From assembly GCF_054482525.1 (NCBI RefSeq), contig NZ_CM137006.1: 64,000 nucleotides of DNA; one strand, written 5' to 3'. The first letter of the stretch is position 1. Each line of letters begins with the position of its first letter. The translations under genes were made by a program, and so were the position numbers. The notes beneath the pieces were generated by a model. That model ran no database searches. It saw only the letters and a list, made by a program, of their open reading frames with translations, and was not told where the DNA came from. Positions 27,275 through 59,785 of the stretch are shown piece after piece.

Positions 27275-27339
27275 CGACGTGCAATAAATATCCTCCGGCA
27301 TAGCCGGAGGTTTTTCAAATGCGCCTATAAGGCTCTCTT

Positions 27340-28691: not shown

Positions 28692-29028
28692 GGAGAACGC
28701 AATATCACCTGTCTTATATGATTACACCCAGAATTTCCCGGACTGTCTTGTCAAAACATTCAGTCTCCAATTCCCACCAATAGCAAGACGGTCACTATGA
28801 CAGCATCTCCGGAATGAGCTCAGGGCACGGGGGTTTACCGAGGTTACTTTTCCAACGAAGTTTCTCAAACGCAGGCGTGATAACATTCAAACTTAGGATC
28901 TCAGTTGCTATCTTTTCCCATGTCTTACGGATTAATGTCATCGGTTGCATACAAATCGCTACAAGCTGCATCAAGGCACATGCTTCATATGTACAGTACA
29001 CCAAGATGGATAGGTGTTTCACCTAATC

Positions 29029-29437
29029 CTAGCTCATTTCAGGCAGGCTCAACAGGCTGCAGCCCGCATGTTTAAGGGCGCAGGTTATCAGCAGGTTATA
29101 AGCTGACCGGATACATTCCGGCAAAGAAAAACCTTGCAGCGATGAAAGCCGTTTCGGTAATGCAATGACGATAAAGCTGTCCTGTATATATGTGCTTCGC
29201 CTCAAACGCTTGCCGTTTTGGTATTGTGCACATGCCGTCTGAACGATGTGGAGCCAGAAAAATGGATGCGTTATGTCATTGAGCATATCTAGGACTGGCC
29301 GGCAAACCGGGTACACGATCTGTTGCTCTAAATAGTTGAGCTGGCCTCTCAGTAAATATCAATACGGTTTTGGTGAGCCGCTTACCACTGAAGCATCACT
29401 TCGGCAGGTAGATTTCTGCAGGCAGAATGGCGCTTAC
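29029..29437 (+). mobile_element. IS66-family remnant (3-prime end of transposase plus terminal repeat); left limit uncertain
   Basis: The plus frame at ~29225-29330 reads …LVLCTCRLNDVEPEKWMRYVIEHI*DWPANRVHDLLL*, the C-terminal signature of IS66-family TnpC with an in-frame stop. A GTAAGCGCC-type end (ggcgcttac) lies at 29429-29437. Confidence 0.55.
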
Positions 29438-29462
29438 CTTAGCGATAAGCGCGTAAATGTGG

Positions 29463-30476
29463 TTATTCAATACCTGTGGTGACTGTAAAAGTGCGCGTTT
29501 GCTGCGGTGCAACCTGAATCAGCGTGCCATTACGTTGCGCGGCAAGATACCCCTCAGGTCGACAGGTTGCTGGTAATGCAAAGGCGGCTACCTGTTGCTC
29601 GCCGTTATAAAGGATCCAGCGTGTCACATAATTTAGTTCAGCACTGGAGAAACGAGTAACAAACGTAGTGCCATCGGGAGCGATCATGCGAAACTCTGGC
29701 TGATCTGTGTAAGCGTCCAGTTTGTCTGCAAAGAAGACTATTTCTGGATCATAAAATTCCGGTTGATTCAGCGTCGACAGAGAGGCTTCTCCCTGCATAA
29801 TCCGTTGATTAAACGCCAGCCACTGGGCGGTGGGATTAACATGCGAAGGTACTGATTCACGCAACCTTAATATTTCGTCCGGTATATTCTGGCTGAACGT
29901 AGCATTTGGTATATATGCATAATTCATGTGGCACATATATTGTAGTGGCATATCTACAGAAGCCAGATTGGTTACGGCCATCTTAATATCGAACAATGTA
30001 GAGGATTTGTGAAGGACCACTGTTGGCTGAGCCAGATAATGATGCCCGAACCCCATTACATACTCGTAACGCCCGGTAAGGCGTAACATATCTCCCTCTA
30101 ATTCCATCCATGCTTCATCCATCGCGGCACAGGCCATTTCACCGTGTAGCAGATGAGTATCTTCCGCAGATGGGCAGCCATTAGCCAGCAAACCTGAATG
30201 AAAGGCAAAACAGCCATAGGTCTCTATCACCTCTGTCGCCGGTTTAGGCTGGCGAAACATATTGCACATGGTGAGACTGTGTCCATCAAATTGCGCATCC
30301 CAAATCATCTGCCCCATCCAGGGAAGAATAATTAAATGTCCACGACTGTTTGCAATTTTAAGCCCCTCGACACCACTGTCATAGCGAAAAGACGTGACAG
30401 TAAAATCACTATTTTCCAGCAAGATACGAGGTTTTTCGCCAAAAAGCGCCCGCCACAAATAAATACGCGTACTCAT
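29463..30476 (-). CDS. deoX: Aldose-1-epimerase-family protein of the deoxyribose cluster
   Basis: A 337-aa ORF, last gene of the co-oriented kinase-permease-epimerase trio. The assignment follows the described deoQKPX organisation and my recognition of the neighbours. Confidence 0.7.
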   Translation of the reverse strand: MSTRIYLWRALFGEKPRILLENSDFTVTSFRYDSGVEGLKIANSRGHLIILPWMGQMIWDAQFDGHSLTMCNMFRQPKPATEVIETYGCFAFHSGLLANGCPSAEDTHLLHGEMACAAMDEAWMELEGDMLRLTGRYEYVMGFGHHYLAQPTVVLHKSSTLFDIKMAVTNLASVDMPLQYMCHMNYAYIPNATFSQNIPDEILRLRESVPSHVNPTAQWLAFNQRIMQGEASLSTLNQPEFYDPEIVFFADKLDAYTDQPEFRMIAPDGTTFVTRFSSAELNYVTRWILYNGEQQVAAFALPATCRPEGYLAAQRNGTLIQVAPQQTRTFTVTTGIE

Positions 30477-30487
30477 AACGATTCTCC

Positions 30488-31804
30488 TCAGGACTCTGTG
30501 ACTTCAGCCAGTGCATTACGTACTTTGCTTTCACGCCAGAAGTAGACACCGACATAGACAAAACAGAGCATAGAAACCAGGAATGAAAGCTGTAGTGAGT
30601 GGAACATATCTGCAATATACCCCTGAATTGCCGGAACCACCGCTGCGCCAACAATAGCCATAACAATGACTGCTCCTGCCATTTCTGTATGTTGGTTATC
30701 AACTGTATCCAGTGTTCCTGCATAGATCGTCGCCCAGCAAGGGCCAAACAAAACACTTACCAGGACGGCGACATAGACCGCGCTGAAACTTGGAGCCAGT
30801 GCAACATATGCCAGAAACAGCGCCCCTATAACGGAATAGAGAATTAGGACTTTTTCCGGATTAAAACGTGTCATAAGGATGTTGGCTATAAACTTGCCAA
30901 TAAAGAAGCAGGCAAAGCTGTAGACCATGAAGTTTGAAGCATCACGTTCGTTGATATCGCCCAACTCCAGTGCCAGACGGATGGTAAATGACCATACTGC
31001 GACCTGCATACCCACATAAAGGAATTGAGCCACAATACCACGACGAAAGCGCGAATTTTTAGCCAGATAGCGCAGCGTATCCATTGCTGACGGGCGTTTA
31101 TGGTGACTTGTCTGTGCCACTTTACAGGTTGGGAAGCGGGTTAAAAGGAACAACACCATGACCACAACAAGAATCATAATCATATACTTATACGGTTCAA
31201 GGGTGTTCTCTAACATCAGCACCTTAAAGTTGTGAATTTGCTCGGCGTTCATTCCGGACATCTGCTTCTCAAGGCTTTCCCCCTCGGAGAAAACCAGATA
31301 TTTGCCCAATAAAATACCAGACGCAGCACCAATCGGATAAAAGGTCTGGCTGATATTGAGCCGCAATGTGGCATAGGCTTTTGGACCGATCATTGAACTG
31401 TATGTGTTCGCTGCAGTTTCAAGGAAACTCAGGCCAATCGCAATCGCAAAAATAGCTGCAAGGAACATAGTGTAGGTTGCCATATGCGAGGCAGGGAAAA
31501 AAAGTGTACAACCACCAATATACAGCGTCAGGCCAATTAAAATTGCCACCTTATAACTGGTCTTTTTAATCACAAGGGATGCTGGTATTGCAATTAAAAA
31601 ATAACCTCCATAAAATGCGCTCTGCACCAATGCTGAAGCAAAGTTACTTAGCGAAAATACACTTTTGAATTGAGTGATTAATATGTCATTTAATGCAGCT
31701 GCGCATCCCCATAGCGGGAATAAACACGATAACAAAATAAACTGGAACAAGGGAGTCTTATTCAGATACCCATCAGGCATCTGAATGATGTTTTTATCGT
31801 TCAT
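30488..31804 (-). CDS. deoP: MFS sugar permease (fucose-permease-like), deoxyribose permease
   Basis: A 438-aa polytopic membrane protein with 12-TM-like hydrophobic periodicity, lying between the kinase and epimerase genes. Confidence 0.8.
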   Translation of the reverse strand: MNDKNIIQMPDGYLNKTPLFQFILLSCLFPLWGCAAALNDILITQFKSVFSLSNFASALVQSAFYGGYFLIAIPASLVIKKTSYKVAILIGLTLYIGGCTLFFPASHMATYTMFLAAIFAIAIGLSFLETAANTYSSMIGPKAYATLRLNISQTFYPIGAASGILLGKYLVFSEGESLEKQMSGMNAEQIHNFKVLMLENTLEPYKYMIMILVVVMVLFLLTRFPTCKVAQTSHHKRPSAMDTLRYLAKNSRFRRGIVAQFLYVGMQVAVWSFTIRLALELGDINERDASNFMVYSFACFFIGKFIANILMTRFNPEKVLILYSVIGALFLAYVALAPSFSAVYVAVLVSVLFGPCWATIYAGTLDTVDNQHTEMAGAVIVMAIVGAAVVPAIQGYIADMFHSLQLSFLVSMLCFVYVGVYFWRESKVRNALAEVTES

Positions 31805-31831
31805 AGTGCTACCTTTAACTGTGCAGGATGA

Positions 31832-32752
31832 TTATTCGTTTAAGGTTAAAAATTCATTAAATTGTTCAATACTCGGATAAGATGATTGCGTACCTTTCCC
31901 TGTGACGCTGAAAGCGGCAAAGAGAGCGGCTTTTTTCAAAGCGGCTTCAACATCACCGCTTTGAACATAATAATGGGAAAAGCAACCAATAAATGCGTCA
32001 CCAGCGCCACTAGTATCAACAGCATTTACTTTGAATGCAGGAACATGGACTTCCTGATCGCGGGTCATCCATAATGCGCCTTTTTCGCTCATGGTAACAA
32101 TAATATTGTTCAGCCCTTTATCAACTAACGAACGTGCGGCCAAACGAATATGATCATAAGTATCAACCGACATACCGGTTAATATTTCCAGTTCTGTTTC
32201 ATTCGGGATAAAGAAATCACATTTGCAGGCATAAGACATATCTAACTCACGCAATGCCGGAGCCGGATTTAATAACACTTCAATACCATTTTTCTTACCA
32301 AACTCAATCGCGTGGTAAACTGTTTCCAGTTGAACTTCCAGTTGTAAAACGATCAATTTGCATTTTTTCAGATCTTCTGCAGCTCGATCGATATCTTCCG
32401 GGGAAAGAAATTTATTCGCTCCCTTAATTATTAATATACTATTGCTCGAGTTGGCATTAACAAAGATCGGTGCAACACCACTGCTGGTACAGGGGACCTT
32501 CTCAACATAAGTGATATTAATTCCCCATGATTCGAGATTACGAATAGTATTATCCGCAAAAATATCATCACCTACTTTAGTCAGCATCAGGACTTTTGAA
32601 TTCAATTTAGCCGCCGCCACCGCTTGATTAGCACCTTTCCCACCACATCCGATTTTGAAGGCAGGTGCTTCCAGAGTTTCTCCTTCTTTAGGCATCTGAT
32701 TAGTGTAAGTAATGAGATCCACCATATTGGAACCAATAACTGCAATGTCCAT
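31832..32752 (-). CDS. deoK: Deoxyribokinase (ribokinase/PfkB family)
   Basis: Start MDIAVIGSNMVDLITY at the ATG at 32752. Motifs: GGKGANQAVAAAKL and C-terminal DTSGAGDAFIG (PfkB signatures). It reads like Salmonella/E. coli DeoK as I recall it. Confidence 0.85.
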   Translation of the reverse strand: MDIAVIGSNMVDLITYTNQMPKEGETLEAPAFKIGCGGKGANQAVAAAKLNSKVLMLTKVGDDIFADNTIRNLESWGINITYVEKVPCTSSGVAPIFVNANSSNSILIIKGANKFLSPEDIDRAAEDLKKCKLIVLQLEVQLETVYHAIEFGKKNGIEVLLNPAPALRELDMSYACKCDFFIPNETELEILTGMSVDTYDHIRLAARSLVDKGLNNIIVTMSEKGALWMTRDQEVHVPAFKVNAVDTSGAGDAFIGCFSHYYVQSGDVEAALKKAALFAAFSVTGKGTQSSYPSIEQFNEFLTLNE

Positions 32753-33057
32753 TTCACTACCTCTTATAAACTTTCGCATAACAATGGTATTTAAATAACA
32801 TTAGCATGTTACTTTTGCATCATTTGTGACTGAGATCGCGATTAGCACATCAACCCGATGTTTATTTAATAGACTTCCAGTCTCATCACTCAGGCCAACA
32901 CGATCTAATCATAAGCAACCTAACAGGATTAATACCGAAAACTCAGCAGCCTATACCCTTTTCATTTCAAAGGGGCGGTCGTATAGTATGGTAATGAAAA
33001 CAATGTTTACTAACGCCAAAATGTTATTTTTATAACATTCTTACGGAGAGAGAGTTG

Positions 33058-33840
33058 ATGGAAACGAAGCAAAAAGAGCGTATCCGACGTTTGATGGAAC
33101 TGCTTAAGAAAACCGACAGAATCCATTTGAAAGACGCAGCGCGAATGCTGGAAGTTTCTGTAATGACTATTCGTCGCGATCTCCATCAGGAAGATGAACC
33201 TCTGCCACTGACCCTACTGGGTGGCTATATTGTAATGGTGAATAAACCCGCGCCATCCATGCCAGTAATCCATGACGTTCCAAAAAATCATCGTGATGAC
33301 TTACCTATTGCAATTCTGGCTGCCGGAATGGTTAATGAAAATGATCTGATCTTCTTTGATAATGGTCAGGAGATACCACTCGTTATAAGCATGATCCCGG
33401 ATGCAATCACCTTCACCGGTATCTGTTACTCACATCGCGTCTTTGTTGCGTTGAATGAAAAGCCTAATGTAACAGCAATACTTTGTGGTGGTACGTATCG
33501 TGCCAGAAGTGATGCTTTTTACGATGCCAGTAACTCTTCGCCATTAGACTCTCTCAATCCGCGAAAAATATTTATTTCCGCCAGCGGTGTGCATAATCAC
33601 TTTGGCGTCAGCTGGTTTAACCCTGAAGATCTTGCCACTAAGCGTAAAGCGATGAACCGTGGACTACGGAAAATTTTGCTCGCCCGCCACGCGTTGTTCG
33701 ATGAAGTGGCCTCTGCCAGCCTCGCACCGATCTCTGCATTTGACGTTCTGATTAGCGATCGTCCGTTACCGGCAGATTATGTTACGCACTGCCAGAATGG
33801 TTCTGTAAAGATCATTACACCTGATTCAGAAGACGAATGA
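33058..33840 (+). CDS. deoQ: DeoR-family repressor of the deoxyribose cluster
   Basis: N-terminal DeoR HTH (…RIHLKDAARMLEVSVMTIRRDL…) plus a sugar-phosphate-binding-type C-terminal domain. Divergent from deoK. Confidence 0.8.
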   Translation: METKQKERIRRLMELLKKTDRIHLKDAARMLEVSVMTIRRDLHQEDEPLPLTLLGGYIVMVNKPAPSMPVIHDVPKNHRDDLPIAILAAGMVNENDLIFFDNGQEIPLVISMIPDAITFTGICYSHRVFVALNEKPNVTAILCGGTYRARSDAFYDASNSSPLDSLNPRKIFISASGVHNHFGVSWFNPEDLATKRKAMNRGLRKILLARHALFDEVASASLAPISAFDVLISDRPLPADYVTHCQNGSVKIITPDSEDE

Positions 33841-34951
33841 CTTACTGAAAAAACACCACAATCTTGTTAAACATCGTCGGATTGGACTGATTACGTTGCA
33901 CTTTCACCACATATTCCAGCTTATCTATTTGGCTTATCACCTACTCCAGACGCTGGTCATCCTTGACCAGTAGCCAGATATGGCTTTTGTCGCAGTCCTG
34001 AATCGGCAGGCAGAGAATGTCTTCAACGTTAAGAGCGCGACGGGCAAAAGCCCACAAAGGTGAGTCATTACACCCGGATGGTAAACAGGCACTTCCTTGT
34101 TGTAGAAGCCGTTATATTGTCCATAATGTCTGGGTTTTTAATGCATACTGGGTAACAACCGGACGAATCTTCGAATATCACTGGCGCTGCCAGCCGGTTT
34201 GAATTCATCTCACAACCCTGCATAGAGCGAATCTCCTGCCTGCACGTCACTCCACTCCATGGTATCAACTTCACACTCTTTATCTGCGGCTAGTTTCAGC
34301 CACCAGATAAGCATCGACTATGAAAGATGAGCCATGACAACATAACGTTGGTAACGCTCTGACGCCTTAATGGAAGATGCCTGCCACCATAGGGAATGTA
34401 AACGACTGAAGTGTGGCCTTTAATGCCGTGAACGGCTCATGGTCTCCTGGCACGGTTGCCGCCCCAACCTGTAACAACATTCCACAGTACAATGTCTGTC
34501 AGAGTCAGAGCCTCCCATGCTTGTTGTAGTAACTCTACCAGTTACGAACATCCTTCCTCAAAATTGTTGTCATATCTCGCATGGAAGAAAAGATCCTGGC
34601 TAAGGAGCAACACACAACGTATTGCGGAACTTGCATATTTTTCCTGTAACTAGTGTATTACCACATATGGTAATAGCTACCTGTGTGGTTTCGCTGGATA
34701 GCAAGGGGATTTATTCGCAAGTAAAATGCCTGATAAAATACACGAATCTAGTAATCATCAATATTTACTCTGGTCGAATGACGCGTGAAGTGGACTGCCA
34801 GCAGACGCGGCCAGTGGTCCACCGCCTGCTGAACAAAACGCCAGATATCTCCCGGCTCTGAAAGTAACGCTTCGGTTATTTGCACGGAATACTACTCCTT
34901 CAGACTCTGTTAAGTTTTGTTTGTTAAACCGGTGCAGACCTGCAGGAAAGC

Positions 34952-36204
34952 ATGCCAGCACCGGCACTGTACGATATAAACATCCGGTACCGGGGATACG
35001 AATGGAATGACGAATACGCCAGAAAAGGGATAACAACCTTCCTCATAATGGTGAAATCATTCGCTATCGGTTACACGGTACGCGATGTCGCCAAAGGCAG
35101 CTGGATCGACGAATCCACGGTCACGCTACCGAAAGCGCCGCCGCTTAACACCCTGCCTCGGGCGACCAAAGTGCCGGAGCCGCAGCCGCCGCAGGAAGAT
35201 TACACCTTTGAAGGTTACCGCAACGCCGACGGCAGCGTGGGCACCAAAAACCTGTTGGGTATTACCACCAGCGTGCACTGCATGGCAGACGTTGAGGACT
35301 ACGTGGTTAAAATTATCGAACGCGACCTGCTGCCGAAATACCTGAGCATCGACGGCGTGGTCGACTTGAACCACCTCTACGGCTGTGGCGTAGCGATTAA
35401 TGTACCGGCCGCCGTGGTGCCAATTCGCACCATCCATAATATTGCGCTGAACCCAAACTTCGGTGGCGAAGTGATGGTGGTGGGCATGCAGTGCGGTGGC
35501 AGCGACGCGTTCTCCGGCGTTACCACTAACCCCGCGCTGTCGGCTACGACTCTGACCTGCTGGTGCGCTGCGGCGCAACGGTGATGTTCTCCGAAGTCAC
35601 TGAAGTACGCGACGCCATTCATCTGTTAACGCCACGCGCCATCAATGAAGAAGTGGGCAGGCGTCTGCTCGAAGAGATGGCCTGATACGATAACTATCCC
35701 GATATGGGCAAAACCGACCGCAGCGCCAACCCTTCGCCGGGCAACAAAAAGGGCGGCCTCGCCAACGTGGTAAAGAAAGCACTCGGCTCCATTGCTAAAT
35801 CGGGTAAAACCGCAATTGTTGAAGTGCTGTCGCCCGGTCAACACCCGACTAAACGCGGATTAATTTACGCCGCGACGCCAGCCAGCGATTTTGTCTGTGG
35901 CACGCAACAGGTGGCTTCGGGTATCACCGTGCAAGTGTTTACGACCGGCCGTGGTACGCCGTACGGCCTGATGGAGGTACCCGTCATTAAAATGGCGACC
36001 CGCACCGGGCTGGCGAACCACTGGTTTGATTTAATGGATATTAACGCAGGCACTATCGCTACCGGCGAAGAAACCATTGAAGAGGTGGGCTGGAAGTTGT
36101 TCCACTTTATTCTCGACGTCGCCAGCGGGAAGAAGAAAACCCTCTCGGATCAATGGGGATTGCATAACCAACTGGCAGTGTTTAACCCGGCACCGGTGGC
36201 CTGA
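34952..36204 (+). pseudogene. garD: Galactarate dehydratase gene remnant (5-prime truncated, frameshifts, internal deletion)
   Basis: Pieces in different frames read …EGYRNADGSVGTKNLLGITTSVHC…, …GGEVMVVGMQCGGSDAFSGVT…, …[20 protein letters not shown]…, …[22 protein letters not shown]…[13 protein letters not shown]. Relative to GarD as I recall it, the first ~70 codons and ~95 internal codons are missing. Confidence 0.8.
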
Positions 36205-39374: not shown

Positions 39375-40550
39375 ATGTTTGATTTCGACAAAATCATTGA
39401 GCGTCAAAGTGATAAGTGCCGTAAATGGGACCATACCTTTGTTTGCTCGCGTTTCGGTGACGTCCCGGAGTCCTTTATCCCCCTATGGATAGCCGATATG
39501 GATTTCACCTCACCACCTGCGGTGATTGACGGTTTCCGGCGCATCGTGGAGCACGGCACCTTTGGTTATACCTGGTGCTTTGACGAATTCTACGACGCGG
39601 TCATTGCCTTCCAGCGCAAACGTCATCAGGTTGAGGTGGAAAAGTCGTGGATCACGTTGACCTACGGCACCGTATCCACGCTGCACTACACGGTTCAGGC
39701 ATTCTGCAAACCGGGTGACAGCGTGATGATGAACACGCCGGTCTACGATCCTTTTGCGATGGCGGCACAGCGCCAGGGCGTGCAGGTACTGGCTAACCCG
39801 CTGCGCGTGGAGGAAAACCGCTATCAGCTTGATTTTAATCTGATAGAAGAACAGCTCAAAACCCACCGTCCAACGCTGTGGTTCTTCTGCTCGCCACATA
39901 ACCCGTCCGGCAGGATCTGGCGCGAGGAAGAAATACGCCAGGTGTCCGATCTCTGTCAACGCTACGGCACGATTCTGGTGGTCGATGAGGTTCACGCTGA
40001 ACACATTCTGGATGGCAAATTCGCCAGTTGTCTCACCTCTGGCTGTGCCGCCCAGGACAACCTGATCGTGCTCACATCGCCCAACAAAGCGTTCAATTTG
40101 GGCGGGCTGAAAACCTCCTACTCCATGATTCCAGACGACTCGCTGCGCCAGCGCTTCCGCCAGCAGCTCGAGAAGAACTCCATTACCTCGCCCAATTTGT
40201 TCGGGGTATGGGGAATCATTCTGGCCTATCAACACGGTCTGCCCTGGCTCGACGCGCTGAACGGTTATCTGCAAGGCAACGCCCGGTATCTGGCGGATGC
40301 CCTCCAGACCCACTTCCCGGCGTGGAAGATGATGAACCCGGAATCGTCGTATCTGGCGTGGATAGACGTAAGCGCGGATGAGCGTAGCGCAACGCAGCTA
40401 ACCCAACATTTCGCACGGCAGGCAGGCGTGGTCATAGAAGACGGCAGCCACTATGTACAAAACGGCGAAAACTACCTGCGGATTAATTTTGGCACCCAGC
40501 GCTACTGGCTGGAGCAGTCCATTAACCGAATGCTGAAAAATGACAAATAA
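39375..40550 (+). CDS. MalY/PatB-type PLP-dependent C-S lyase (aminotransferase class I/II fold)
   Basis: MFDFDKIIERQSDKCRKWD N-terminus typical of MalY/PatB, with PLP-lysine context TSPNKAFNLGGLK. It starts 12 nt after the PTS gene. Confidence 0.8.
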   Translation: MFDFDKIIERQSDKCRKWDHTFVCSRFGDVPESFIPLWIADMDFTSPPAVIDGFRRIVEHGTFGYTWCFDEFYDAVIAFQRKRHQVEVEKSWITLTYGTVSTLHYTVQAFCKPGDSVMMNTPVYDPFAMAAQRQGVQVLANPLRVEENRYQLDFNLIEEQLKTHRPTLWFFCSPHNPSGRIWREEEIRQVSDLCQRYGTILVVDEVHAEHILDGKFASCLTSGCAAQDNLIVLTSPNKAFNLGGLKTSYSMIPDDSLRQRFRQQLEKNSITSPNLFGVWGIILAYQHGLPWLDALNGYLQGNARYLADALQTHFPAWKMMNPESSYLAWIDVSADERSATQLTQHFARQAGVVIEDGSHYVQNGENYLRINFGTQRYWLEQSINRMLKNDK

Positions 40551-40563
40551 GGATCTTACCCCG

Positions 40564-42453
40564 ATGAAGAAAGTGCTCACTCTCTCACTGCTGGCTCTCT
40601 GCGTTTCTCATGGTGCAGCGGCAGCAAACTACGCGCTCAATAACGACAATATTGCCCTCTTGTTTGATGATACAAACTCAACGGTCGTGGTGAAGGACAA
40701 CAAGGCTAACCATCCGCTCACGCCGCAGGAGTTGTTCTTTCTGACGCTGCCGGATGAGAGTAAAATCCACACCGCGGATTTCAAAATCAAGCACGTCGAA
40801 AAGCAGGATAACGCGATTGTCATCGACTTTACGCACCCGGATTTTAACGTCACGGTGAAGCTGAACCTGGTGAAGGGAAAATACGCCAACATCGGCTACA
40901 CCATTGCCGCCGTGGGGCAGCCGCGCGACGTCGCTAAAATCACCTTCTTCCCGACCCAAAAACAGTCTCAGGCCCCTTACGTAGACGGCGCAATCAATAG
41001 CTCTCCGATCGTTGCGGACTCGTTCTTTATCCTGCCGGATAAACCGATCGTGAATACCTACGCCTATGAAGCCACCACCAATCTCAACGTAGAGCTGAAA
41101 ACGCCGATTCAGCCAGAGGCGCCGGTCAGCTTTACTACCTGGTTCGGCACTTTCCCGGAAACCAGCCAGCTGCGCCGCAGCGTGAACCAGTTTATTAATG
41201 ACGTACGTCCACGCCCATACAAGCCTTATCTGCACTACAACAGCTGGATGGATATCGGCTTTTTCACTCCCTACACTGAACAGGATGTGCTGGGGCGTAT
41301 GGACGAGTGGAACAAGGAGTTCATTACGGGCCGCGGCGTGGCGCTGGACGCCTTCCTGCTGGATGATGGCTGGGACGATCTGACCGGACGCTGGCTATTT
41401 GGCACGGCATTCAGAAACGGTTTTAGCAAAGTACGGGAGAAAGCCGACAGCCTGCACAGCTCCGTTGGGCTATGGCTTTCACCGTGGGGTGGCTACAACA
41501 AACCGCGCGACGTTCGCGTTTCGCATGCAAAAGAGTATGGGTTCGAAACCGTGGACGGCAAACTGGCGCTGTCGGGAGCGAACTACTTTAAAAACTTCAA
41601 TGAGCGGATCATCAAGCTTATCAAAAACGAGCACATCACCTCATTTAAACTCGACGGGATGGGTAACGCCAGTTCGCATATCAAAGGCAGCTCGTTCGCC
41701 TCAGATTTCGATGCATCAATCGCCCTGCTGCACAATATGCGCAGCGCAACCCCGAATCTGTTTATCAACCTGACCACCGGCACCGACGCCAGCCCGTCCT
41801 GGCTGTTCTACGCTGATTCTATCTGGCGTCAGGGAGATGACATTAACCTGTATGGTTCCGGTACGCCGGTGCAGCAGTGGATGACCTACCGCGATGCCGA
41901 GACGTACCGCTCCATTGTCCGTAAAGGCCCTCTGTTCCCGCTGAACTCGCTGATGTACCACGGGATAGTCAGCGCCGAGAATGCCTATTACGGGTTAGAG
42001 AAGGTGCAAACGGACAGCGACTTTGCCGATCAGGTCTGGAGCTACTTCGCGACCGGCACCCAGCTGCAGGAGCTGTATATTACCCCGTCCATGCTGAACA
42101 AGGTGAAGTGGGATACGCTGGCGAAGGCTGCAAAATGGTCGAAGGAAAATGCCAGCGTGCTGGTTGATACCCACTGGATTGGCGGCGACCCAACGGCGCT
42201 TGCCGTGTACGGCTGGGCATCCTGGAGCAAAGACAAAGCCATTCTCGGTTTGCGCAACCCATCGGATAAGCCACAGGCCTACTATCTGGATTTGGCTAAG
42301 GATTTCGAAATACCGACAGGAGACGTGGCGCAGTTTAGTCTGAAAGCGGTATACGGCAGCAATAAAACCGTGCCCGTTGAGTATAAAAACGCGACGGTGA
42401 TTACGTTGCAGCCGCTGGAAACGCTGGTGTTTGAGGCGGTGCCCGTTAACTAA
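40564..42453 (+). CDS. Secreted glycoside hydrolase, alpha-galactosidase-like (clan GH-D)
   Basis: Signal peptide MKKVLTLSLLALCVSHGAAAA from the ATG at 40564. FLLDDGWDD and SFKLDGMG motifs resemble the melibiase-type catalytic core. Confidence 0.65.
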   Translation: MKKVLTLSLLALCVSHGAAAANYALNNDNIALLFDDTNSTVVVKDNKANHPLTPQELFFLTLPDESKIHTADFKIKHVEKQDNAIVIDFTHPDFNVTVKLNLVKGKYANIGYTIAAVGQPRDVAKITFFPTQKQSQAPYVDGAINSSPIVADSFFILPDKPIVNTYAYEATTNLNVELKTPIQPEAPVSFTTWFGTFPETSQLRRSVNQFINDVRPRPYKPYLHYNSWMDIGFFTPYTEQDVLGRMDEWNKEFITGRGVALDAFLLDDGWDDLTGRWLFGTAFRNGFSKVREKADSLHSSVGLWLSPWGGYNKPRDVRVSHAKEYGFETVDGKLALSGANYFKNFNERIIKLIKNEHITSFKLDGMGNASSHIKGSSFASDFDASIALLHNMRSATPNLFINLTTGTDASPSWLFYADSIWRQGDDINLYGSGTPVQQWMTYRDAETYRSIVRKGPLFPLNSLMYHGIVSAENAYYGLEKVQTDSDFADQVWSYFATGTQLQELYITPSMLNKVKWDTLAKAAKWSKENASVLVDTHWIGGDPTALAVYGWASWSKDKAILGLRNPSDKPQAYYLDLAKDFEIPTGDVAQFSLKAVYGSNKTVPVEYKNATVITLQPLETLVFEAVPVN

Positions 42454-42932: not shown

Positions 42933-44369
42933 TCAACCTTTCTTAATCATTGCCGAAATTGCGCCACAGTCATGAAACTTATCAAAACCAGTGGTGCCTT
43001 TGATATATTCAGTAACCAGAGTACCAATAATCTTAACCGTTTCTTTGTTCGTTGTGATAAAGCCCAGTGGCATCGTTACAGGCAATATTTCGGGTTGAGA
43101 AATATGATAGATAACGGCAGATAACTCATCCTCAAGATGAAGGATCTCAACATTACCATCTAACAGCCCCTCAACTAGTCCTTTAGCGTACTCATGGAAT
43201 TGCCCAAGTTCATACTTCCACTGTCTGGCAACCCGAGCATCAGCTGCATCCCGGACAGGTACGTACAGCACCGGTTTATACAGCTGCTTATCCTTCGTAG
43301 CCGACTTGCTAAGAAAATTGCTCAGGCTTGAGATAAATCGAATGCTTTTTGACCAGTAGGGATCTGATGGTGCCACCCAGATGAACGGGCTACCTCCATA
43401 ATCAGTTTTATCTCTGATACGCTGATTGAGCGCTGGTGCCAGAGCTTTCTGCAGCTTTTCCCAGTTGTTTTTAGAATAAACCGGACCTAAAAAAGTCGTT
43501 CTGCCTGAGGACGAGTATTCTTCCAGTGCTTGCATATCTTTGATAAACAACGGATTAAGTCGATTCGTTTTAGAGTCAAACAGCTTAAGCGTAAGGTCAT
43601 CGTTAATGGATTGCATGGCCTTAAAAATACTCATGGTATTGTTATGCCGTGATAACCTGGCTATCTCAACAGCCATTAACTCATGAACACATTCCGAACT
43701 ATTTAACTGTTCATAGTCTTCACGCTCGACAGCCTTACCATCGCTATCCATTTTAAATTCCGTTGTTAAACGGAGTGGTATTTGCCGCAGCTTATTAACA
43801 GAATTAACGGTATAGATAGAAGGTTGTTCTTTTCCGACCTGAACCTGCAGGTGAGACAGGTAACCTTTATCCAGGATTTGATTAAACTGGTATTGAAAGT
43901 GCTTCTCAACCAGTTTCTCACTTTGAGAAATGTTGTTGTCATCAACCTTTAATGTTACCCCTCCCCTCCAGTGGTCCTGAAAAGCCTGGTTGCTGAAGCA
44001 ACTAAATGTGGCTAAATCAAAGGATAAGGTACAGCCACTGTCCTGAATAGTTGAAAGATGCGGTATCTCGCCAACCTCTGAAAAATAGCCATTTGATTTG
44101 TCTGTTAAGGCCAGTCTGCCGTCTGAGGAGAGCGTCAATTCGCCACGCTGCACAAGATCGGAAATCGCCTCCTCTGTCTCACGGTGGGTCAGGCCGAAAT
44201 AGGTTGCTATTTGTGCTTTGCTCATCGAAGCTACATGAACAAGTCTCAGCACAAACTCCCGGATAAATGGCAGCCCCTTCTGGGAAACATAGGAAAACTG
44301 AATGTTAAACCTCTGTGCTGGCAGCAGGAAGTCAACCTCATGATAGGTAACTTTGTTATCAGATATCAT
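42933..44369 (-). CDS. Hypothetical 478-aa protein with N-terminal winged-helix-like domain; partner of the NERD-kinase-helicase gene
   Basis: Its ATG (44369) overlaps the upstream gene's TGA (ATGA at 44366-44369). Residues ~45-95 ([41 protein letters not shown]) look like a MarR-type wHTH. The rest is unassigned. Confidence 0.75.
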
Positions 44370-47300
44370 TTCTTTTTGCCTCCCTGCTGAGCAGAGAGGA
44401 ACCTGTATCCAGCTTCCTGACCTCGCTCAGCCATATAACTTACAACGTAGCCTAATGGCAATTCTTTATTGTTTCCCTTCCAGATATCGGCATTACCCAC
44501 AATCAACAGTCGATCCATTGCGCGTGACATCGCGACATTTATACGGTTTGGAACGCGTAAGAAACCTGGGCTATGCTGCTTATCCGAACGCGTCAGTGAC
44601 AGGATAATGATCCGATTTTCCTTTCCCTGATAACTGTCAACAGTGTCAATTTTAACAATGTCCTTAAATCCCTCGCTCCAGATTTCCTGATTGAATTTCT
44701 GACGGAGTAACCGCTTTTGTTCGGCATACATACATATCACGCCGATAGCGGCTTCATCTTTGCTAACAAGTTTTGAAAGCTTAGCGACAAATTCTTCATT
44801 CTCTGACACCTGTTTAAGAACAGAAATAATCTCGTCAGCTTCACATCGGTTGTAAATGCTTGTTCCGCGATCTTCAAGATGATGTGCTCGGTGGCCCTGA
44901 TTAGCAGTATCAAGCCAGGTTACAACGCTACGTAACGCTTCCGGAGCTTGCTGATAGACATCCGGAATTGCCCGTACTCCATTCAGAAGCTTCCCGTCAT
45001 AAAACGTCTTCGATACGAGATTACCAATCGGTGGAGCCATACGATACTGGGTCATCAAAGCTGCACTCGTCTGCGCACCATAAGCAGAGTTGAAGGCTCG
45101 GGCAAAGTCACTTCGTAATACCTCGTCAATTTCAGTGCGGGAGTTATTGATACCCAGCTTCCTCGCTAATGCCGCCTTGTGGGCATCTGAGTACAATGGA
45201 GGAAGCTGCATGTGGTCACCCACCAACAGGACACGCCGGGCTGACTGCATTGCAATGGCCAGCTCACTTGAAATCGAGCGCGCCGCCTCATCAATAATCA
45301 CCCAGTCATAGATATTCTCCTGAATGCCAATGTGCCCTTGTCCAATACCAACGCATGTGCCAGCCACTAACTGCCTGGAGCGCGAATAAAACTCGTCCAG
45401 GTTCACTCGCTCTCCCGACATAGCATCCTGCATATCACGGGATATTTTAGCTAATGCTTTTACTCGTCTTGCCTCATCAGGTCTGACACCATACTCTGTA
45501 CATAGCTTGGAAATCAGAATGTCTTTTGCTGCTGAGACCTTCACGCCATTGTCCAAGTTAATCCCATACTCCTGACTCAGCTTAGAGCGGATGGAAAAAT
45601 CGAGTTCGACTGCAATATCTTTCAGTTCATTGCTCTCATTTGAATCCGTTAAATTGTTAACCTGATAGAGCAATTTCTCAAGGTGATCGATTTGTCTGAA
45701 CAAATTGAGCTCTGCAAGAACAACACCCGAAATAAATCCCGGCTCAAGACCAATAGCTTCACTCAATGCTTCAACACGGTACTTAATTTCAGCATTGAAG
45801 AGTTCGCGCTTCTCTGTTGTGATTGCGTGTGAGTACACATCTTTTAAGCCAGGGGAAACGGCTCCCTCTCGGTTGCTGAACCTGACAACGTCCAACTCTG
45901 TACCAAGCCGGGAACAATGCTTTCTGATACGCTCGGCCGCTGTATTCACAGCCTCGTGTGACTGGCTGACCAGTAAAATGCGTTTGGTATTCTGTTTCTC
46001 GATCAGGTAGTGAACAAAGGCCGCGATGAACTCGGTTTTACCGGTCCCCGGTGGCCCCTGAAGCAGGGAGAGAGGGCCATTATTGACCAGTTTGTTAAAC
46101 GCCTTTCTTTGCTGTTCATTCAGACTGATCTTGTTTCCGTGCTGATCTTCACGGTCGTATCTGGCAAAATCGGTATCGCTGAGAGTGATACCATAATTTT
46201 GAGCCGCCTGTTTGCAGGATGGATCGAACAAGTCAATTAAGTCAGGCAGCACACTTTCTCGATCTAGGAGACGTTCCAGTGCGCGTTTACGTTTCTGATA
46301 AGATGCACGAGTCGGCCTTGTACGGAAGAAGACAATATCAGAATCCTTCAGCTTGAAGGCTGCTGAACTAACTTTGACAAGACGAATCTCTTTGAGCTCT
46401 GACTTCTTAAGTGACACTTCACCAATAAATCGCTCAACACCTTCCTGATCGACCTGTAAGGCTTCGACTTCATCACTACTTCTGAAAGCACCGAGTGGAT
46501 CAACATCAGCAGAGTAAGGGAGAAGAAGCTCTCCATGAGCATCTGCAACCGGGACCACTTCACCGCTGATTTCAATGTTTGGATAAGATTCTGTTTCAGT
46601 ATCCAGAATGGCGCGCCACAGTTTCACTGTTGGGATTTCCAGCACTTCTCTTAAAGAAGGTTCAAGCGTCTGCTTATCAAGCCTTGCAAAGGTATCTTTT
46701 AGCTGAAGCGTAAGTGGCTCTTGTACCTGAACATCTTCAGTTGCGGCAATCAACTCGATTGCCCGCGCAAAAGATTCTTCTTCATTAAGCAATACTGTCA
46801 ACGCCGACAGATCCTGCGGACTGCCGGGAATAATCTTGATGCCAGTATCAATTTCGAACTGGCTTTCATCAATATCTTGCTTACGAATTGTGACGCGAGC
46901 CCGTGGCCTGAAGCCATGAACCAGCGTCTTCTGATCTTTGTTGAACACCGCAGTAAAACTGCCACCAATCCCAGAGAAAGTCACATTTACTTCAGCTGGC
47001 GCTTTAGGATTTGACTTAACTTTGACATACAGATGCCCGTTATCAGGCAGAATAGAGATTATTTCATCGGCATTTCCTGCAGTAATCTCTATCAGGTCTT
47101 GTTCTGGCACCAGGTCATTACTATCTATCGCTTTTTTAAAGCGGCCTAAATCCTTAAACCCAAAAACCGGATCTTCCAGCTCTGCTCGGATAGCATTCGC
47201 GATTGTCGGATAAATGTCTGATTCCAGCCCCCATGACATGCCTAGCAACTCGCAGGACATCTTCATCACTGCATAGTTGTCACGTTCAAAAGAAGTACAA

Positions 47301-47682
47301 TTATCAATGTATTCAGGGCTGTAACTGTGATTTTTAGGTTCGTCACCGGACGGTGAAAAATCGGGGATATCGATGAGAAAAAGCAAACGGCTCTGTGTCT
47401 CAAATATCACATTGCCAGGGTGGATGTCCCCGTGAGAAACACCCAGACCATGTAAGTGCTCAACGGCGGCGACAAACTTACCAATGAGGTCGATTTTTTC
47501 ATCATCGGGGACCGCTATTTTATCCCAGGTTTCTCCCTGTACCTGATCCGTGACCATATATAGGCTTGATGATTTTGATGCGATACCGAATTCACGAATT
47601 TGAGGTAGATACGTTGTTTTAACTGAAGAAAGCCGCTCAACCTGCTTTAAAAACTTCAGAACCTGGAAATTAATTGACGGAT
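44366..47682 (-). pseudogene. C-terminal 1105 codons of an IS-split NERD / kinase-like / APH-type kinase / SF1 helicase gene
   Basis: The frame is open from the IS629 boundary. It holds the kinase catalytic segment VSHGDIHPGNVIF…LFLIDIPDF. Helicase motifs follow: LLQGPPGTGKTEF, VIIDEAARS, LVGDHMQLPP, TQYRMAPPIGN, TVDSYQGKENRIIILSLTRS and NVAMSRAMDRLLIVGN (Upf1/DNA2-like). Confidence 0.85.
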
Positions 47683-47736
47683 TGAACCGCCCCGGGAATC
47701 CTGGAGACTAAACTCCCTGAGAAAGAGGTAAACAGG

Positions 47737-48063
47737 ATGACTAAAAATACTCGTTTTTCCCCCGAAGTCCGTCAGAGGGCGATTCGTATGGTTCTGGAAA
47801 GTCAGGGCGAATATGACTCACAGTGGGCGGCAATTTGTTCCATTGCCCCAAAGATTGGCTGTACACCGGAGACTCTGCGTGTCTGGGTACGCCAGCATGA
47901 GCGGGATACCGGAGGCGGTGATGGCGGGCTCACCACCGCTGAACGTCAGCGTCTGAAAGAGCTGGAACGTGAAAATCGTGAACTGCGCCGCAGTAACGAT
48001 ATCCTTCGCCAGGCTTCCGCTTATTTTGCGAAGGCGGAGTTCGACCGCCTCTGGAAAAAATGA
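47737..48063 (+). CDS. IS629 OrfA (HTH transposase subunit)
   Basis: A 108-aa ORF ([26 protein letters not shown]…) with a leucine-zipper-like C-terminus. It overlaps orfB (ATGA at 48060-48063). Confidence 0.9.
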
Positions 48064-48950
48064 TGCCACTGCTGGATAAGCTGCGTGAGCAGTACGGGGT
48101 CGGACCGCTATGCAGCGAACTGCATATTGCCCCGTCAACGTATTACCACTGTCAGCAACAGCGACATCATCCGGATAAACGCAGTGCCCGTGCGCAGCGC
48201 GATGACTGGCTGAAGAAAGAGATACAGCGCGTATACGATGAAAATCATCAGGTGTACGGTGTGCGTAAAGTCTGGCGTCAGTTGTTACGGGAAGGTATCA
48301 GAGTGGCCAGATGCACTGTGGCACGTCTCATGGCGGTTATGGGACTTGCCGGTGTTCTCCGGGGTAAAAAGGTCCGTACGACCATCAGCCGGAAAGCCGT
48401 TGCCGCAGGCGACCGCGTAAACCGTCAGTTCGTGGCAGAACGACCTGACCAGCTGTGGGTGGCTGATTTTACTTACGTCAGCACATGGCGGGGCTTCGTC
48501 TATGTGGCGTTCATCATTGATGTGTTTGCCGGATACATCGTGGGGTGGCGGGTCTCATCGTCTATGGAAACGACATTCGTGCTGGATGCTCTGGAGCAGG
48601 CGTTATGGGCCCGTCAACCGTCCGGCACAGTCCATCACAGTGATAAAGGTTCTCAGTATGTATCGCTGGCCTACACACAGCGGCTTAAGGAAGCCGGATT
48701 ACTGGCATCAACAGGAAGTACTGGTGACTCGTATGACAACGCGATGGCGGAGAGCATCAATGGCCTTTACAAAGCGGAGGTAATACACCGTAAGAGCTGG
48801 AAAAACCGGACAGAAGTGGAGCTGGCCACACTCACGTGGGTGGACTGGTATAACAATCGACGATTGCTGGAAAGGCTGGGCCATATCCCACCGGCAGAAG
48901 CAGAAAAAGCTTATTATGCTTCCATCGGAAACGATGATCTGGCAGCCTGA
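48060..48950 (+). CDS. IS629 OrfB (DDE integrase-core transposase)
   Basis: A 296-aa ORF with …WVADFTYV…[11 protein letters not shown]…[17 protein letters not shown]…. Confidence 0.9.
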
Positions 48951-48992
48951 GTTCACAGATAAAACACTCTCCAGGAAACCCGGGGCGGTTCA

Positions 48993-50649
48993 GATCGTAT
49001 CCCTGTCCCCCAACATTCAGCCAAGCCTTCACGAGCCTTCCTTTCGAGATATAGACTTCTTTGTCGACTGTTTCGACCTGAAACTGAAAGCCATCGTCTT
49101 CCGGGTATTGACGAGCGTGATTGATAGCATGTCGGTAAGGGTCAAGCTCAGTATCATCAAATGTTGGAATATCCTTGCCAGCAGGTTCGGCTTGTTTCAG
49201 GGCATCAAAGAATTCTGTTGCAGAAGTGAATTTTGCGGCAACGGCATCCCGTAATACAGATGAATACCAGTGCTGGCTGTTTAGCATGTTGTCCTGTACT
49301 TTCTCCAGACTCTTTGGCGACATGCGCATACCGCTAAATAAGTGCCAGGCGACAAGGCCCAGAGTATGAACATCTTGCTGAAAAGGCGTAAGCTCGCCCT
49401 TATCAAGCATGTCTTTTACGTGGACTGCACCTACGGATAAAAGCTTACGGTAATCGCCAACCGTTCCGGCTGGCTGGTGGTAAGCCGAAATAAAGTTCGA
49501 AAGAGCAACTTCTTTTGAAGGTGAAATCCACAGACTGTGATCGGCGACATCCCTGTGCGCAATTTTCATCTCATGGAGATCACTAAACTTTGCAATGAGC
49601 AGTTTCACCACATTCAAGCGGTCCATATCAGAAAAGTTCTTACCATATTTTCCGATAAACTCATTAAACCGGACATGACCCGGCGGAACTTCGTAGACTT
49701 CGCTATACTCGGCCGTCACCTCGTCTTTCTGAAAACTCGTCAAAGACCTGAGACAGTGGTTATACAGGTCACGATTCTGGTGATTGATGTGCTGTAACAC
49801 TTCGCGCTCACGTGAAACAATCTGAGCTCGTCCTTCCGGGGTATTCGCTTTCGTTCCCGTTATATTTCTAAAATTCCATACTCTGAGTAGCGCTTCGCTG
49901 TTCGTTGATATCTCAGATTTTGCCAGATATTCTCGATACACCTTTTTAGGATGTTCGAAAATCATATCATTAGCTTCATAGCCATTAACTCTCAAGGCTT
50001 TTGGTGCCGTCTGAGGCCCTAGGAACAAATCATCGAAAAGATGGAAATCCTTGTTAAGAACCTTGGTAGCTGGGTGCGGTTTGAAATAGTTATTGAAGCT
50101 CCCGCGATCGGCAAACTTCAGGAAATCTTTTAACGAGATCGTATGGCGCCGTTGTTCCTCCGGCAGCGCGCTGAAATCTGCATTGCCGGTCATCACAACA
50201 AAAAAATGAACAATCGGGATATAGCCTTTGTTCGTAAAACGGTCTACCAGACGCTTGAGTTTTTTGTCCAGCATGAATTTTTTGCTACGAGTCACGCTTA
50301 CTGGCGAGCGCCCCATGTTCTTATCACCTTTAAACCAAGTATCTCCGCGTGCGGTTACAGGCTGATGGTTCCAGTCTTTCAGTTCAACAATGATCACGTT
50401 GCAGTGTGTTACAATAACTAAATCGAATTCCCCCTCTTTTTTTGCCTCAACAAATCGAAAACCTGCATAACCTTTCCAAGGGAACATTTCATTGCCGATA
50501 AAACCATAGCTTTTTAGCTGCTCACTAATTGAACCGCTACGGAAAGGCTTGTCAGGCTTAGATACGTTGACTGAAAAAGCAGCTTTTATTTTCTCGATAG
50601 CCAATACTTCCTGTTCTTGTAAGCCACCATCCCACATTTCTACTTCCAA
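48993..50649 (-). pseudogene. N-terminal 552 codons of the IS-split gene: NERD domain plus degenerate kinase-like domain plus start of second kinase domain
   Basis: TTG start at 50649, 7 nt after aaggag (alternative ATG at 50637). NERD signature EGEFDLVIVTHCNVIIVELKDW…GRSPV. The kinase-like segment IAHRDVADHSLWI lacks the usual Asn and DFG Asp. The frame runs into IS629 after …LNVGGQGYD. Confidence 0.85.
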
Positions 50650-51311
50650 CGGTGTTCTCCTTAAATTTCAGTAAAAATAAGGTCATTTATTCTGGTCAAT
50701 ATGGCAGGTTTCGATGTTTATAGTTCTGAATACTATGGTGTTTTACACGTTCATTCTGGTTATTATACGTAGAAAAGAATTTATCGGGCAACGCCGAGAT
50801 GACGCGGCCCCGTTAAACCGTGTAGTGGTAGATGATGAGATCAGATACAGGGATCAACTGACGGTGAGCGCAGTCCCCACATTTTATCCGGAGTTTACCG
50901 CTATTCCCGGCTGCCATTCGTTAGCACAGGCCCGCAAGTACCCTGATTTGCCGCTGGTTTTGCTTTCCCATCGAAGGGCCCATACATCATCACGCCCGCG
51001 AAACAGTCGACAAAATAACGCAACTTTCTCATCCGTGGATAATACGGAAACGCACTGCACAGGACTCTGCGGTTTACGTCACCATTCAATCCCATAAGCT
51101 TCAAGTTATGTTTGCCCTCAGTGCAGCTAATTCATCACTGTCAGATTTATGAACCATATTCGTTACCTGTATCCGATCCACTGAGGCACCACGGCAGAAA
51201 TTCGGGTCCCCTACACTGATGACAAAGCGCCCCGCCCTCTTCTGCCTATTAACTCAAGCACCTCCCAACAACTTACAGAAACTTAATTCTAATACCTAAT
51301 ACAACTGTAAT

Positions 51312-58183: not shown

Positions 58184-59386
58184 TTATTTATTCACAATTT
58201 GAGACATCACATAATCCGCCCATGCCTGCATCATCGGTACACGCTGCTCCAGTAGATCAGTACGATGATATGCCGCCTCAACCTTATTTTTCAGCGTATG
58301 AGCGAGCGCCCTTTCCGCCAGATCCCGCGAATACCCCTGTTCGCTACACCAGTCCCTGAATGTTGAGCGAAAACCATGTGCCGTGGCAACTCGCCCCGGA
58401 ATGTCACTGACGGCTTTCTTTTTACGCAGAAAACTTGTCAACACCATATCGGAAAGGATCTGCTGCTTTCTGGGTGAAGGGAACACCAGTTCATCATGCA
58501 GGCCACGTATATTTTCCAGAATGTAAATAGCCTGCCGGGATAAAGGAACACGATGCTGTAGCCTAGCTTTCATTCTTTCTGCAGGTATAGTCCATACCCG
58601 CTTATGAAAATCAATTTCAGCCCAGCGCATTCCCCTGGCTTCGCCCGAGCGAGTTGCTGTAAGTATCACCATTAATAACAGTGCGCGGGTAACATTATAA
58701 GGTTCATCGGTATACACACTGGTCGCCACAAAAAGCGGTAACTGCCTCCAGGGCATTGCGGGTTGGTGTTCATCACGTCCTCTTGTCTGCTGAGGAAGCA
58801 AATGGTCAACCACATCAACAGGATTTGCTACACAAAAACCGTGCGCCCATCCCCACTGCATAACAACATGAATGCGCTGTTTAACCCGGCTTGCCGTTTC
58901 TGACAAGGTTAACCAGACTGGACGCAGTGTTTCTGCCACGTCCGCAGCCGTAATCGAATCCAGCGTTTTTGCTCCCAGTTGAGGAAACGCGTAATTCTCA
59001 AGCGTCGATAACCACTGCCTTACATGCTTTGGATTTTCCCATCCAGGAGACAGTTCTGCATGTACACGCCTGGCTGCATCGGCAAATGTTGGGATAGCGA
59101 CTTTCTCAGATTCAGCCTTTTTAATCTCCAGAGGATCATCACCTGCAGCAAGTTGCTCTCGCATTATCCGGGCAGTACGTGCAGCTTCAGCAATACTGAC
59201 CTCTGGGTAAGTTCCCAATCCAGCATTACGTCTTTTTTGTGTCACCGGACTTACATAACGAAAAACCCATTTCCCCCGCCCCTTTACTGAAGAAGGATGA
59301 AGGGTCAGTCCGGTAATTCCCCCATGGGGCAATGGTTTGTCATCAGGTTTGATATGTCTTGCTTTCGTATCCGTCAATACTGCCAT
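58184..59386 (-). CDS. int: P4-type tyrosine recombinase (island integrase), apparently intact
   Basis: 400 aa. The N-terminal arm-binding region reads MAVLTDTKARHIKPDDKPLPHGG…. The catalytic region carries TATRSGEAR, AHGFRSTFRDW and HTLKNKVEAAYHRTDLLEQR (R…HxxR…Y). Its 5-prime end faces the att repeats. Confidence 0.9.
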   Translation of the reverse strand: MAVLTDTKARHIKPDDKPLPHGGITGLTLHPSSVKGRGKWVFRYVSPVTQKRRNAGLGTYPEVSIAEAARTARIMREQLAAGDDPLEIKKAESEKVAIPTFADAARRVHAELSPGWENPKHVRQWLSTLENYAFPQLGAKTLDSITAADVAETLRPVWLTLSETASRVKQRIHVVMQWGWAHGFCVANPVDVVDHLLPQQTRGRDEHQPAMPWRQLPLFVATSVYTDEPYNVTRALLLMVILTATRSGEARGMRWAEIDFHKRVWTIPAERMKARLQHRVPLSRQAIYILENIRGLHDELVFPSPRKQQILSDMVLTSFLRKKKAVSDIPGRVATAHGFRSTFRDWCSEQGYSRDLAERALAHTLKNKVEAAYHRTDLLEQRVPMMQAWADYVMSQIVNK

Positions 59387-59545: not shown

Positions 59546-59606
59546 TCCCCCTCACCGCCATATTCAAAGAAGAGCTCGTACGAAAGTGCGAGCTTTTTTT
59601 TCGCAT
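59546..59606 (+). repeat. att-type direct repeat copy 1: tRNA-Ser 3-prime end (…ccctcaccgcca) plus terminator hairpin
   Basis: tccccctcaccgccatattcaaagaagagctcgtacgaaagtgcgagcttttttttcgcat. Positions 59547-59587 are identical to 59727-59767. No tRNA body lies upstream. Confidence 0.7.
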
Positions 59607-59725
59607 ATTGCACTCCAGGGGGGATGAGAAGCCCCGACCGGGGTTCGACAACTGGCGCAGCCAGTTGGACAGACCACGAACGCAGTGAGTGGGCTGCCCG
59701 CAGGGCGAGCGAAGCGAGTCAATCC

Positions 59726-59785
59726 CCCCCCTCACCGCCATATTCAAAGAAGAGCTCGTACGAAAGTACGAGTTTTTTTTCGCAT
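59726..59785 (+). repeat. att-type direct repeat copy 2: tRNA-Ser (serW) 3-prime end plus its terminator
   Basis: aatccccccctcaccgcca followed by the ctcgtac-gaaa-gtacgag hairpin and T8. It lies exactly 180 bp from copy 1, and there is again no complete tRNA upstream. Confidence 0.7.

Follow-up and report, generated by a model that had tools for sequence, protein, structure and literature searches.

Mokosh is an anti-phage defense system named by Millman et al. (2022). In that study, Mokosh type I is described as a kinase-plus-Upf1-like-helicase protein accompanied by a separate partner protein, three Mokosh systems protected Escherichia coli, and the defense was lost in mutants of the helicase ATP-binding site and of the phospholipase D (PLD) active site. 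Table S2 of the study lists the verified system SG199, "Mokosh type I", from E. coli SEC470, consisting of a 1652-aa MkoA ("Kinase-Helicase") and a 478-aa MkoB ("HTH", helix-turn-helix), and Table S8 marks the SG199 pair as "Verified"; the SEC470 operon defends E. coli from its native promoter (Millman et al., 2022). A nuclease-related domain (NERD, PF08378) was tabulated for Mokosh type I in a 2023 review (PMC10952713). Here, we analyzed a stretch of 64,000 nucleotides of contig NZ_CM137006.1 (RefSeq assembly GCF_054482525.1), referred to as the window, in which a two-gene operon is split by an insertion sequence (IS). The operon had been proposed, from the sequence alone, to be a candidate undescribed defense system (hereafter the original prediction). 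We instead assign the locus, with a probability of about 95%, to Mokosh type I (mkoA-mkoB) of the long "SEC470" subtype, carried as island cargo and predicted to be inactivated by an IS3-family element that interrupts codon 552 of mkoA. The sequence observation is thus genuine, but it concerns a named and experimentally verified anti-phage system and not a new one. It comprises the following features:

42933-44369, minus strand: mkoB, intact, 478 aa, with a winged helix (residues ~30-95), a linker (100-232) and a PLD-like domain (~240-478)
44366-47682, minus strand: 3′ fragment of mkoA, comprising the last two bases of codon 552 (47681-47682), codons 553-1656 and the stop codon
47683-48992, plus strand: IS3-family insertion sequence (IS629-like) of 1310 bp, recognized from its sequence ends, its open reading frames (ORFs) and the Rfam ALIL match
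47737-48063 and 48060-48950, plus strand: overlapping transposase ORFs of the IS
47680-47682 (left copy) and 48993-48995 (right copy): target-site duplication GAT, read from the sequence
48996-50649, minus strand: 5′ fragment of mkoA, comprising codons 1-551 and the first base of codon 552, from the ORF list and in-silico repair
50650-50921, minus strand: region preceding mkoA, with the native promoter, the counterpart of which was included in the SEC470 clone

Identity and interruption of the operon

Residues 1-1652 of the repaired MkoA were covered by the PADLOC MkoA model PDLC03921 (E=0, 2212 bits; profile positions 1-1603 of 1607), and residues 3-472 of MkoB by the PADLOC MkoB model PDLC03923 (E=1.9e-151, 503 bits; profile positions 4-452 of 454). 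SG199 of SEC470 (MkoA, IMG 2720391838; MkoB, IMG 2720391839) has the same gene order and comparable lengths (MkoA 1652 aa in SEC470 and 1656 aa here, MkoB 478 aa), and identity over residues 1-399 of the SEC470 proteins, the part compared, reaches 92.5% for MkoA (369/399) and 98.2% for MkoB (392/399). Similarity extends to the non-coding region, as window positions 50921-50527 are 94.7% identical to the 5′ end of the SG199 insert. A promoter-like TTGCCC-18-TATAAT is present at 50791-50762, though such matches are no commoner in this region than in shuffled sequences. The window copy differs from SG199 in being split by the 1310-bp IS and in representing a slightly different allele, one that many E. 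coli genomes carry with 100% identity over the repaired junction.

Because both proteins match MkoA and MkoB end to end and SG199 has been verified, the claim of novelty falls; a match to a system with an existing name was among the outcomes that the original prediction itself gave as refuting it. The predicted anti-phage role is supported by the verification of the near-identical SEC470 operon (Millman et al., 2022). An undescribed four-module defense protein with a novel partner would agree with current annotation: NCBI names the products only "AAA domain-containing protein" and "hypothetical protein", NCBIfam contains no MkoB model, and no Pfam model scored above threshold for MkoB. Given the two end-to-end PADLOC matches, the 92-98% identity of the operon to verified SG199, and the published presence of NERD in Mokosh type I, this explanation is exceedingly improbable. 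In genome annotation, the locus should carry the label "Mokosh type I, mkoA::IS3-family element, inactive"; RefSeq at present names the intact orthologues only "AAA domain-containing protein" and "hypothetical protein".

The ORF listing of the locus contains 42933-44369 (minus strand, 478 aa), 44366-47557 (minus strand, the 3′ part of mkoA) and 48832-50649 (minus strand, the 5′ part, extending into the IS). In-silico removal of 47683-48995 yielded one ORF of 1656 codons, in which GGQGYD is joined directly to PSINFQVLKFLKQVERL, exactly the junction that the original prediction had written for an IS-split gene; the insertion point lies in codon 552 (Asp) of the minus-strand mkoA. The repaired junction (800 bp) was found uninterrupted and at full length in 331 of 5426 complete E. 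coli genomes, with at least 99% identity in 319 of them, and the uninterrupted alleles with 100% identity over the junction hold a single GAT. This empty-site allele shows that the IS did enter a previously uninterrupted gene, and the reconstruction thus represents the real ancestral state. The start codon of mkoA is TTG at 50649, 7 nt past AAGGAG, while the PGAP start in the intact orthologues is an ATG four codons further downstream, giving 1652 aa. The gene ends at 44366 and mkoB starts at 44369, and the resulting 4-nt ATGA overlap (44366-44369) agrees with the two-gene operon proposed earlier.

The IS is bounded by terminal inverted repeats (TGAACCGCCCCGGG... and ...CCCGGGGCGGTTCA) and contains an ALIL pseudoknot at 48018-48134 (Rfam, 120 bits). 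IS3-family elements use this pseudoknot as their signal for programmed frameshifting. In E. coli genomes, identical copies of 1310 bp bear the annotation "IS3 family transposase"; of the earlier label IS629, the IS3 family and the 1310-bp length therefore stand, but the exact name is unconfirmed. The IS-mkoA junction was present in none of the 5426 complete E. coli genomes; it is therefore confined to the source strain, and there is no sign that selection has kept the split junction. The earlier suggestion that the insertion reflects selection against a costly system thus found no support either way, the insertion being private and the intact allele common, and nothing shows selection for the insertion.

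As the IS parts the NERD and pseudokinase modules from the kinase and helicase, the window system is predicted to be non-functional. The 5′ fragment encodes NERD, the first kinase-like module and the start of the N-lobe of the second kinase, and the 3′ fragment encodes the remainder of this kinase (HGDIHPGN...IDIPDFS), the middle region and the Upf1-like superfamily 1B (SF1B) helicase. Alternatively, the split locus might still work as a three-part system, in which an N-terminal NERD-pseudokinase protein acts with MkoB and a kinase-helicase protein restarted from an internal ATG or an outward promoter of the IS. The intact mkoB and the 1063-codon ORF with an ATG start that remains past the IS (44366-47557) would allow for such a system. 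The insertion, however, cuts the N-lobe of the kinase with intact catalytic residues just past the putative β3 Lys, and a restart at the internal ATG at 47557 would cost about 40 more residues; moreover, the orthologues inspected in E. coli, Cupriavidus and Hahella were all unsplit, at 1652-1655 aa, and the junction occurs in 0 of 5426 genomes. A functional split system is therefore considered very unlikely, and inactivation of mkoA remains the preferred interpretation.

Domains of MkoA and MkoB and their relatives

Pfam searches of the repaired MkoA detected NERD (residues 57-139), Pkinase (581-661, 41.1 bits against a gathering cut-off of 31.7), AAA_11 (1072-1381, 1.1e-37) and AAA_12 (1408-1616, 5.1e-42), and NCBIfam added a match to the IGHMBP2/Upf1-type helicase model TIGR00376 (6.2e-50). 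The predicted N-to-C order of NERD, two kinase-like modules and an SF1B helicase is thereby backed, and residues ~720-1050 have no domain assignment. Compared with solved structures, the first kinase-like module (~300-440) shows a weak alignment, to kinases of the PknB type; its HRD segment is present, the catalytic-loop Asn is missing, and SNF replaces DFG. In a three-way alignment, these deviations are kept in the orthologues of Cupriavidus and Hahella, which fits a maintained pseudokinase, as had been proposed, beside a kinase with intact catalytic residues. In the second module, HGDIHPGN aligns to HRDLKPEN and IPDF to DFG of solved kinases. Its assignment to the APH/Kdo/RIO type proved weak, since the generic Pkinase model scored best (APH, E=0.071; Bud32, 2.9e-5). 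The NERD D...ExK, HRD, HGDIHPGN, IPDFS, GPPGTGKT and DEAA motifs of MkoA are all kept at 66-82% overall identity.

For MkoB, sequence methods detected only a weak winged helix-turn-helix (wHTH), and the original prediction had recognized nothing beyond it. The N-terminal winged helix stands, but the C-terminal half adopts a PLD-like fold in the predicted structure, without the HKD motif; the linker (100-232) is poorly modelled. Foldseek agrees with the PLD-like assignment, and the structural matches include TrmB (9.8), TrmBL2 (9.7), FAM83B (9.5), vaccinia F13 (9.4), Zucchini (9.0) and Nuc (8.9), together with BfiI, SauUSI and others. No HxK tripeptide occurs anywhere in the MkoB sequence, HxK(x)4D occurs in neither window protein, the Pfam scan of MkoB returned no PLD match, and the MkoB-family profile gave only chance-level matches against PDB sequences. 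Since the verified SEC470 MkoB is likewise described as "HTH" only, the missing HxK(x)4D is a trait of the recognized subtype rather than of this copy. In the PLD-like domain, one His (H422) and several acidic residues are invariant. The archaeal proteins TrmB and TrmBL2 function in transcription or chromatin rather than as helicase partners. They have the same arrangement of a wHTH with a non-catalytic PLD-like domain as the window MkoB; the likeness is one of fold and not of membership, with no detectable sequence similarity.

The other verified type I system, SG202 of E. coli H10407, also pairs a kinase-plus-Upf1-like-helicase protein with an HTH-bearing partner in the same gene order (MkoA 1215 aa, MkoB 602 aa with HTH-PLD). 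The helicase parts are homologous (PDLC03920, E=2e-130), and the H10407-type MkoB model PDLC03922 matches residues 12-248 of the window MkoB (E=1.2e-13). However, the H10407 MkoA falls short of the window protein by about 440 aa, NERD went undetected in its first 399 aa, and the H10407 MkoB carries a canonical PLD domain with HxK(x)4D (HAKIIVCD...GSCN; PLDc_2, E=3e-9), whereas the window MkoB keeps the fold only. An hhalign comparison of the window MkoB family with the first 399 aa of the H10407 MkoB gave no match; the kinship of the two partners is apparent from the PADLOC model and from the fold alone. Mokosh type II (MkoC, e.g. the E. coli YjhR-like helicase-PLD fusion) has the Upf1-like helicase core in common with MkoA (PDLC03924, E=6.6e-36, residues 1341-1639) but is a single protein with neither kinase nor NERD and with a C-terminal catalytic PLD; it is reported to have a narrow defense spectrum, acting against the single-stranded DNA phage SECphi17 (10.1101/2025.07.10.664194).

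The NERD-kinase module of MkoA (~57-460) is homologous to the N-termini of PglW of BREX type 2 (4.1e-27 and 5.7e-24) and MAD6 of MADS (2.3e-31), which are, on these profile matches, its closest relatives. Past the N-terminal ~460 residues neither PglW nor MAD6 matches MkoA, so the Upf1-like helicase is not common to them. Membership in BREX was rejected, as the PglW model NF033442 scored 84 bits against a cut-off of 990 and covered only residues 57-441, and pglX, pglZ and brxC are absent among the neighbors, which consist of island backbone genes and pseudogenes. MADS was likewise rejected, with 109 bits against a cut-off of 460 for the MAD6 model NF047741 and no adjacent MADS partner genes. 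Among the best 25 of 60 PADLOC matches, headed by MkoA, there was no Nhi model.

These comparisons raise the question of whether the long type is a separate system filed under Mokosh type I, composed of a PglW/MAD6-type kinase-nuclease sensor, a helicase motor, and, as the partner, a TrmB-like regulator instead of a nuclease. The PglW and MAD6 matches of MkoA 57-460, the PLD-like fold of MkoB kept without HKD and the placement of TrmB and TrmBL2 among its best structural matches would agree with such a view, as would the canonical PLD of the H10407 subtype, the lack of NERD in the first 399 aa of its MkoA, and the negative MkoB-family profile comparison. On the other hand, the helicase halves of the two subtypes are clearly homologous, the N-terminal half of MkoB matches PDLC03922, and gene order and pairing are identical between the subtypes. 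We consider a separate system less likely than not and retain the assignment to Mokosh type I.

Orthologues, island context and other features of the window

Mobile elements aside, window positions 35281-59782 are 99.5-99.8% identical to E. coli strain 503025, in which the pair is intact (NZ_CP025892.1, positions 953359-959750; WP_001333439.1, "AAA domain-containing protein", 1652 aa, followed by WP_000622487.1, "hypothetical protein", 478 aa). Upstream of the 503025 pair lie genes for a tyrosine integrase, an HTH regulator, a YfjI-family protein and an inovirus-Gp2/YfjJ-like protein, a neighborhood that fits the proposed position as island cargo. A search with MkoB recovered 507 homologues at E<=0.001, which almost without exception measure ~478 aa and lack Pfam domains. 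In both Cupriavidus and Hahella, a gene of 1654-1655 aa with NERD, Pkinase, AAA_11 and AAA_12 immediately precedes the MkoB gene, the MkoA orthologues being 66% and 82% identical, respectively; the Hahella pair adjoins DndB and an N6-methyltransferase gene. Pairing, order and sizes of the two genes are therefore kept in E. coli 503025, Cupriavidus and Hahella, in line with the co-occurrence expected earlier, and this co-occurrence reaches well outside Enterobacteria.

Immediately upstream of mkoA, a frameshifted fragment lies at ~50822-51157 (minus strand), the counterpart of which in the orthologous locus carries the RefSeq annotation of a "TOTE conflict system archaeo-eukaryotic primase domain" pseudogene. 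This TOTE-type fragment could be left over from cargo that occupied the slot previously. Just downstream of mkoB, a 637-aa ORF at 40540-42453 (plus strand), annotated "enterotoxin" in the orthologous locus, lies beside malX/malY-like genes, and the island thus mixes virulence and defense cargo. The ISEc22 (IS66-family) and IS100 (IS21-family) copies of strain 503025 have no counterpart in the window (23060-35683), which is wholly different from that strain upstream of ~23060. The island is a fast-changing, IS-rich mosaic.

A second defense cluster is located ~25 kb from the Mokosh operon, at ~13375-22710 (plus strand). It holds the type I restriction-modification genes hsdM, hsdS and hsdR, a DarT/DarG toxin-antitoxin pair that separates hsdS from hsdR and, past these, an M48 metallopeptidase gene; the assignments derive from the annotation of E. 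coli AH65, to which the region is 99.9% identical. Between the island integrase gene (58184-59386, minus strand) and clpA/clpS (60084-62711, minus strand), positions 59787-59870 hold vestigial type I-F CRISPR repeats; Rfam CRISPR-DR4 was matched at 59843-59870 (50 bits), with a second partial copy (ctgcctgtacggcagtgaac) ~50 bp upstream, and no cas genes were seen near these repeats. Two tandem repeats of ~137 nt beside the integrase gene (59547-59782) are annotated as "RtT sRNA" in the RefSeq record of strain 503025. ARAGORN detected no tRNA gene in the window, and the only Rfam tRNA match was marginal (28624-28691, 30.7 bits). The small RNAs STnc490 (143 bits) and STnc100 (136 bits) gave strong Rfam matches side by side in the mosaic island at 27861-28205 (minus strand).

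Proposed mechanism and its bearing on Mokosh

In the intact system, MkoA may serve both as sensor and as effector. The Upf1-like SF1B helicase of this protein would use ATP and engage phage nucleic acid, either by sensing it or by translocating on it, and the kinase with the intact Asp/Asn/DF, together with the conserved pseudokinase, may couple sensing to activation. The defense would then be executed by a nuclease, in the SEC470 subtype most likely NERD, the conserved PD-(D/E)xK domain of MkoA, given that the catalytic HxK(x)4D has disappeared from the PLD-like domain of MkoB. MkoB, with its wHTH and non-canonical PLD-like domain, is more likely a nucleic-acid-binding or regulatory partner. 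It is reported that full evasion of a Mokosh type I system of uropathogenic E. coli (CFE331) by T-even phages needs both DNA glucosylation and the Alt ADP-ribosyltransferase (10.1101/2025.11.20.689424), and such a need suggests that recognition or attack takes place at the DNA level.

Several points weigh against parts of this interpretation. The Mokosh type I complex resisted purification in a 2025 survey (10.1101/2025.07.10.664194), and all of the steps above are inferred. In the SEC470 subtype, NERD is a predicted requirement, and the mutants of Millman et al. (2022) are not, in the accessible text of that study, tied to one particular Mokosh system. H422 and the invariant acidic residues leave room for non-canonical catalysis by MkoB. 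The CFE331 results may concern a subtype other than SEC470. As to the locus itself, its identity to SEC470 was computed from the N-terminal portions given above, and the 3′ fragment of mkoA and the intact mkoB could still be expressed.

We tentatively suggest, as a possibility less likely than not, that the long SEC470 type is a mechanistically distinct subtype, in which the nuclease function would have moved from the PLD of the partner to a NERD fused to the sensor, and in which MkoB would serve as a TrmB-like sensor of nucleic acid or ligand, composed of a wHTH and a pseudo-PLD. A shift from PLD to NERD in SEC470-type Mokosh was not found stated in the literature searched. If it is true, the analogy to PLD nucleases and the piRNA pathway (Zucchini/MOV10L1) that has been used for Mokosh would not describe the SEC470 subtype. 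The credible nuclease site of the two verified type I systems lies in the HKD PLD of MkoB in H10407 versus the NERD of MkoA in SEC470, including the window copy, and those working on the mechanism of Mokosh should treat the H10407 and SEC470 subtypes as separate cases.

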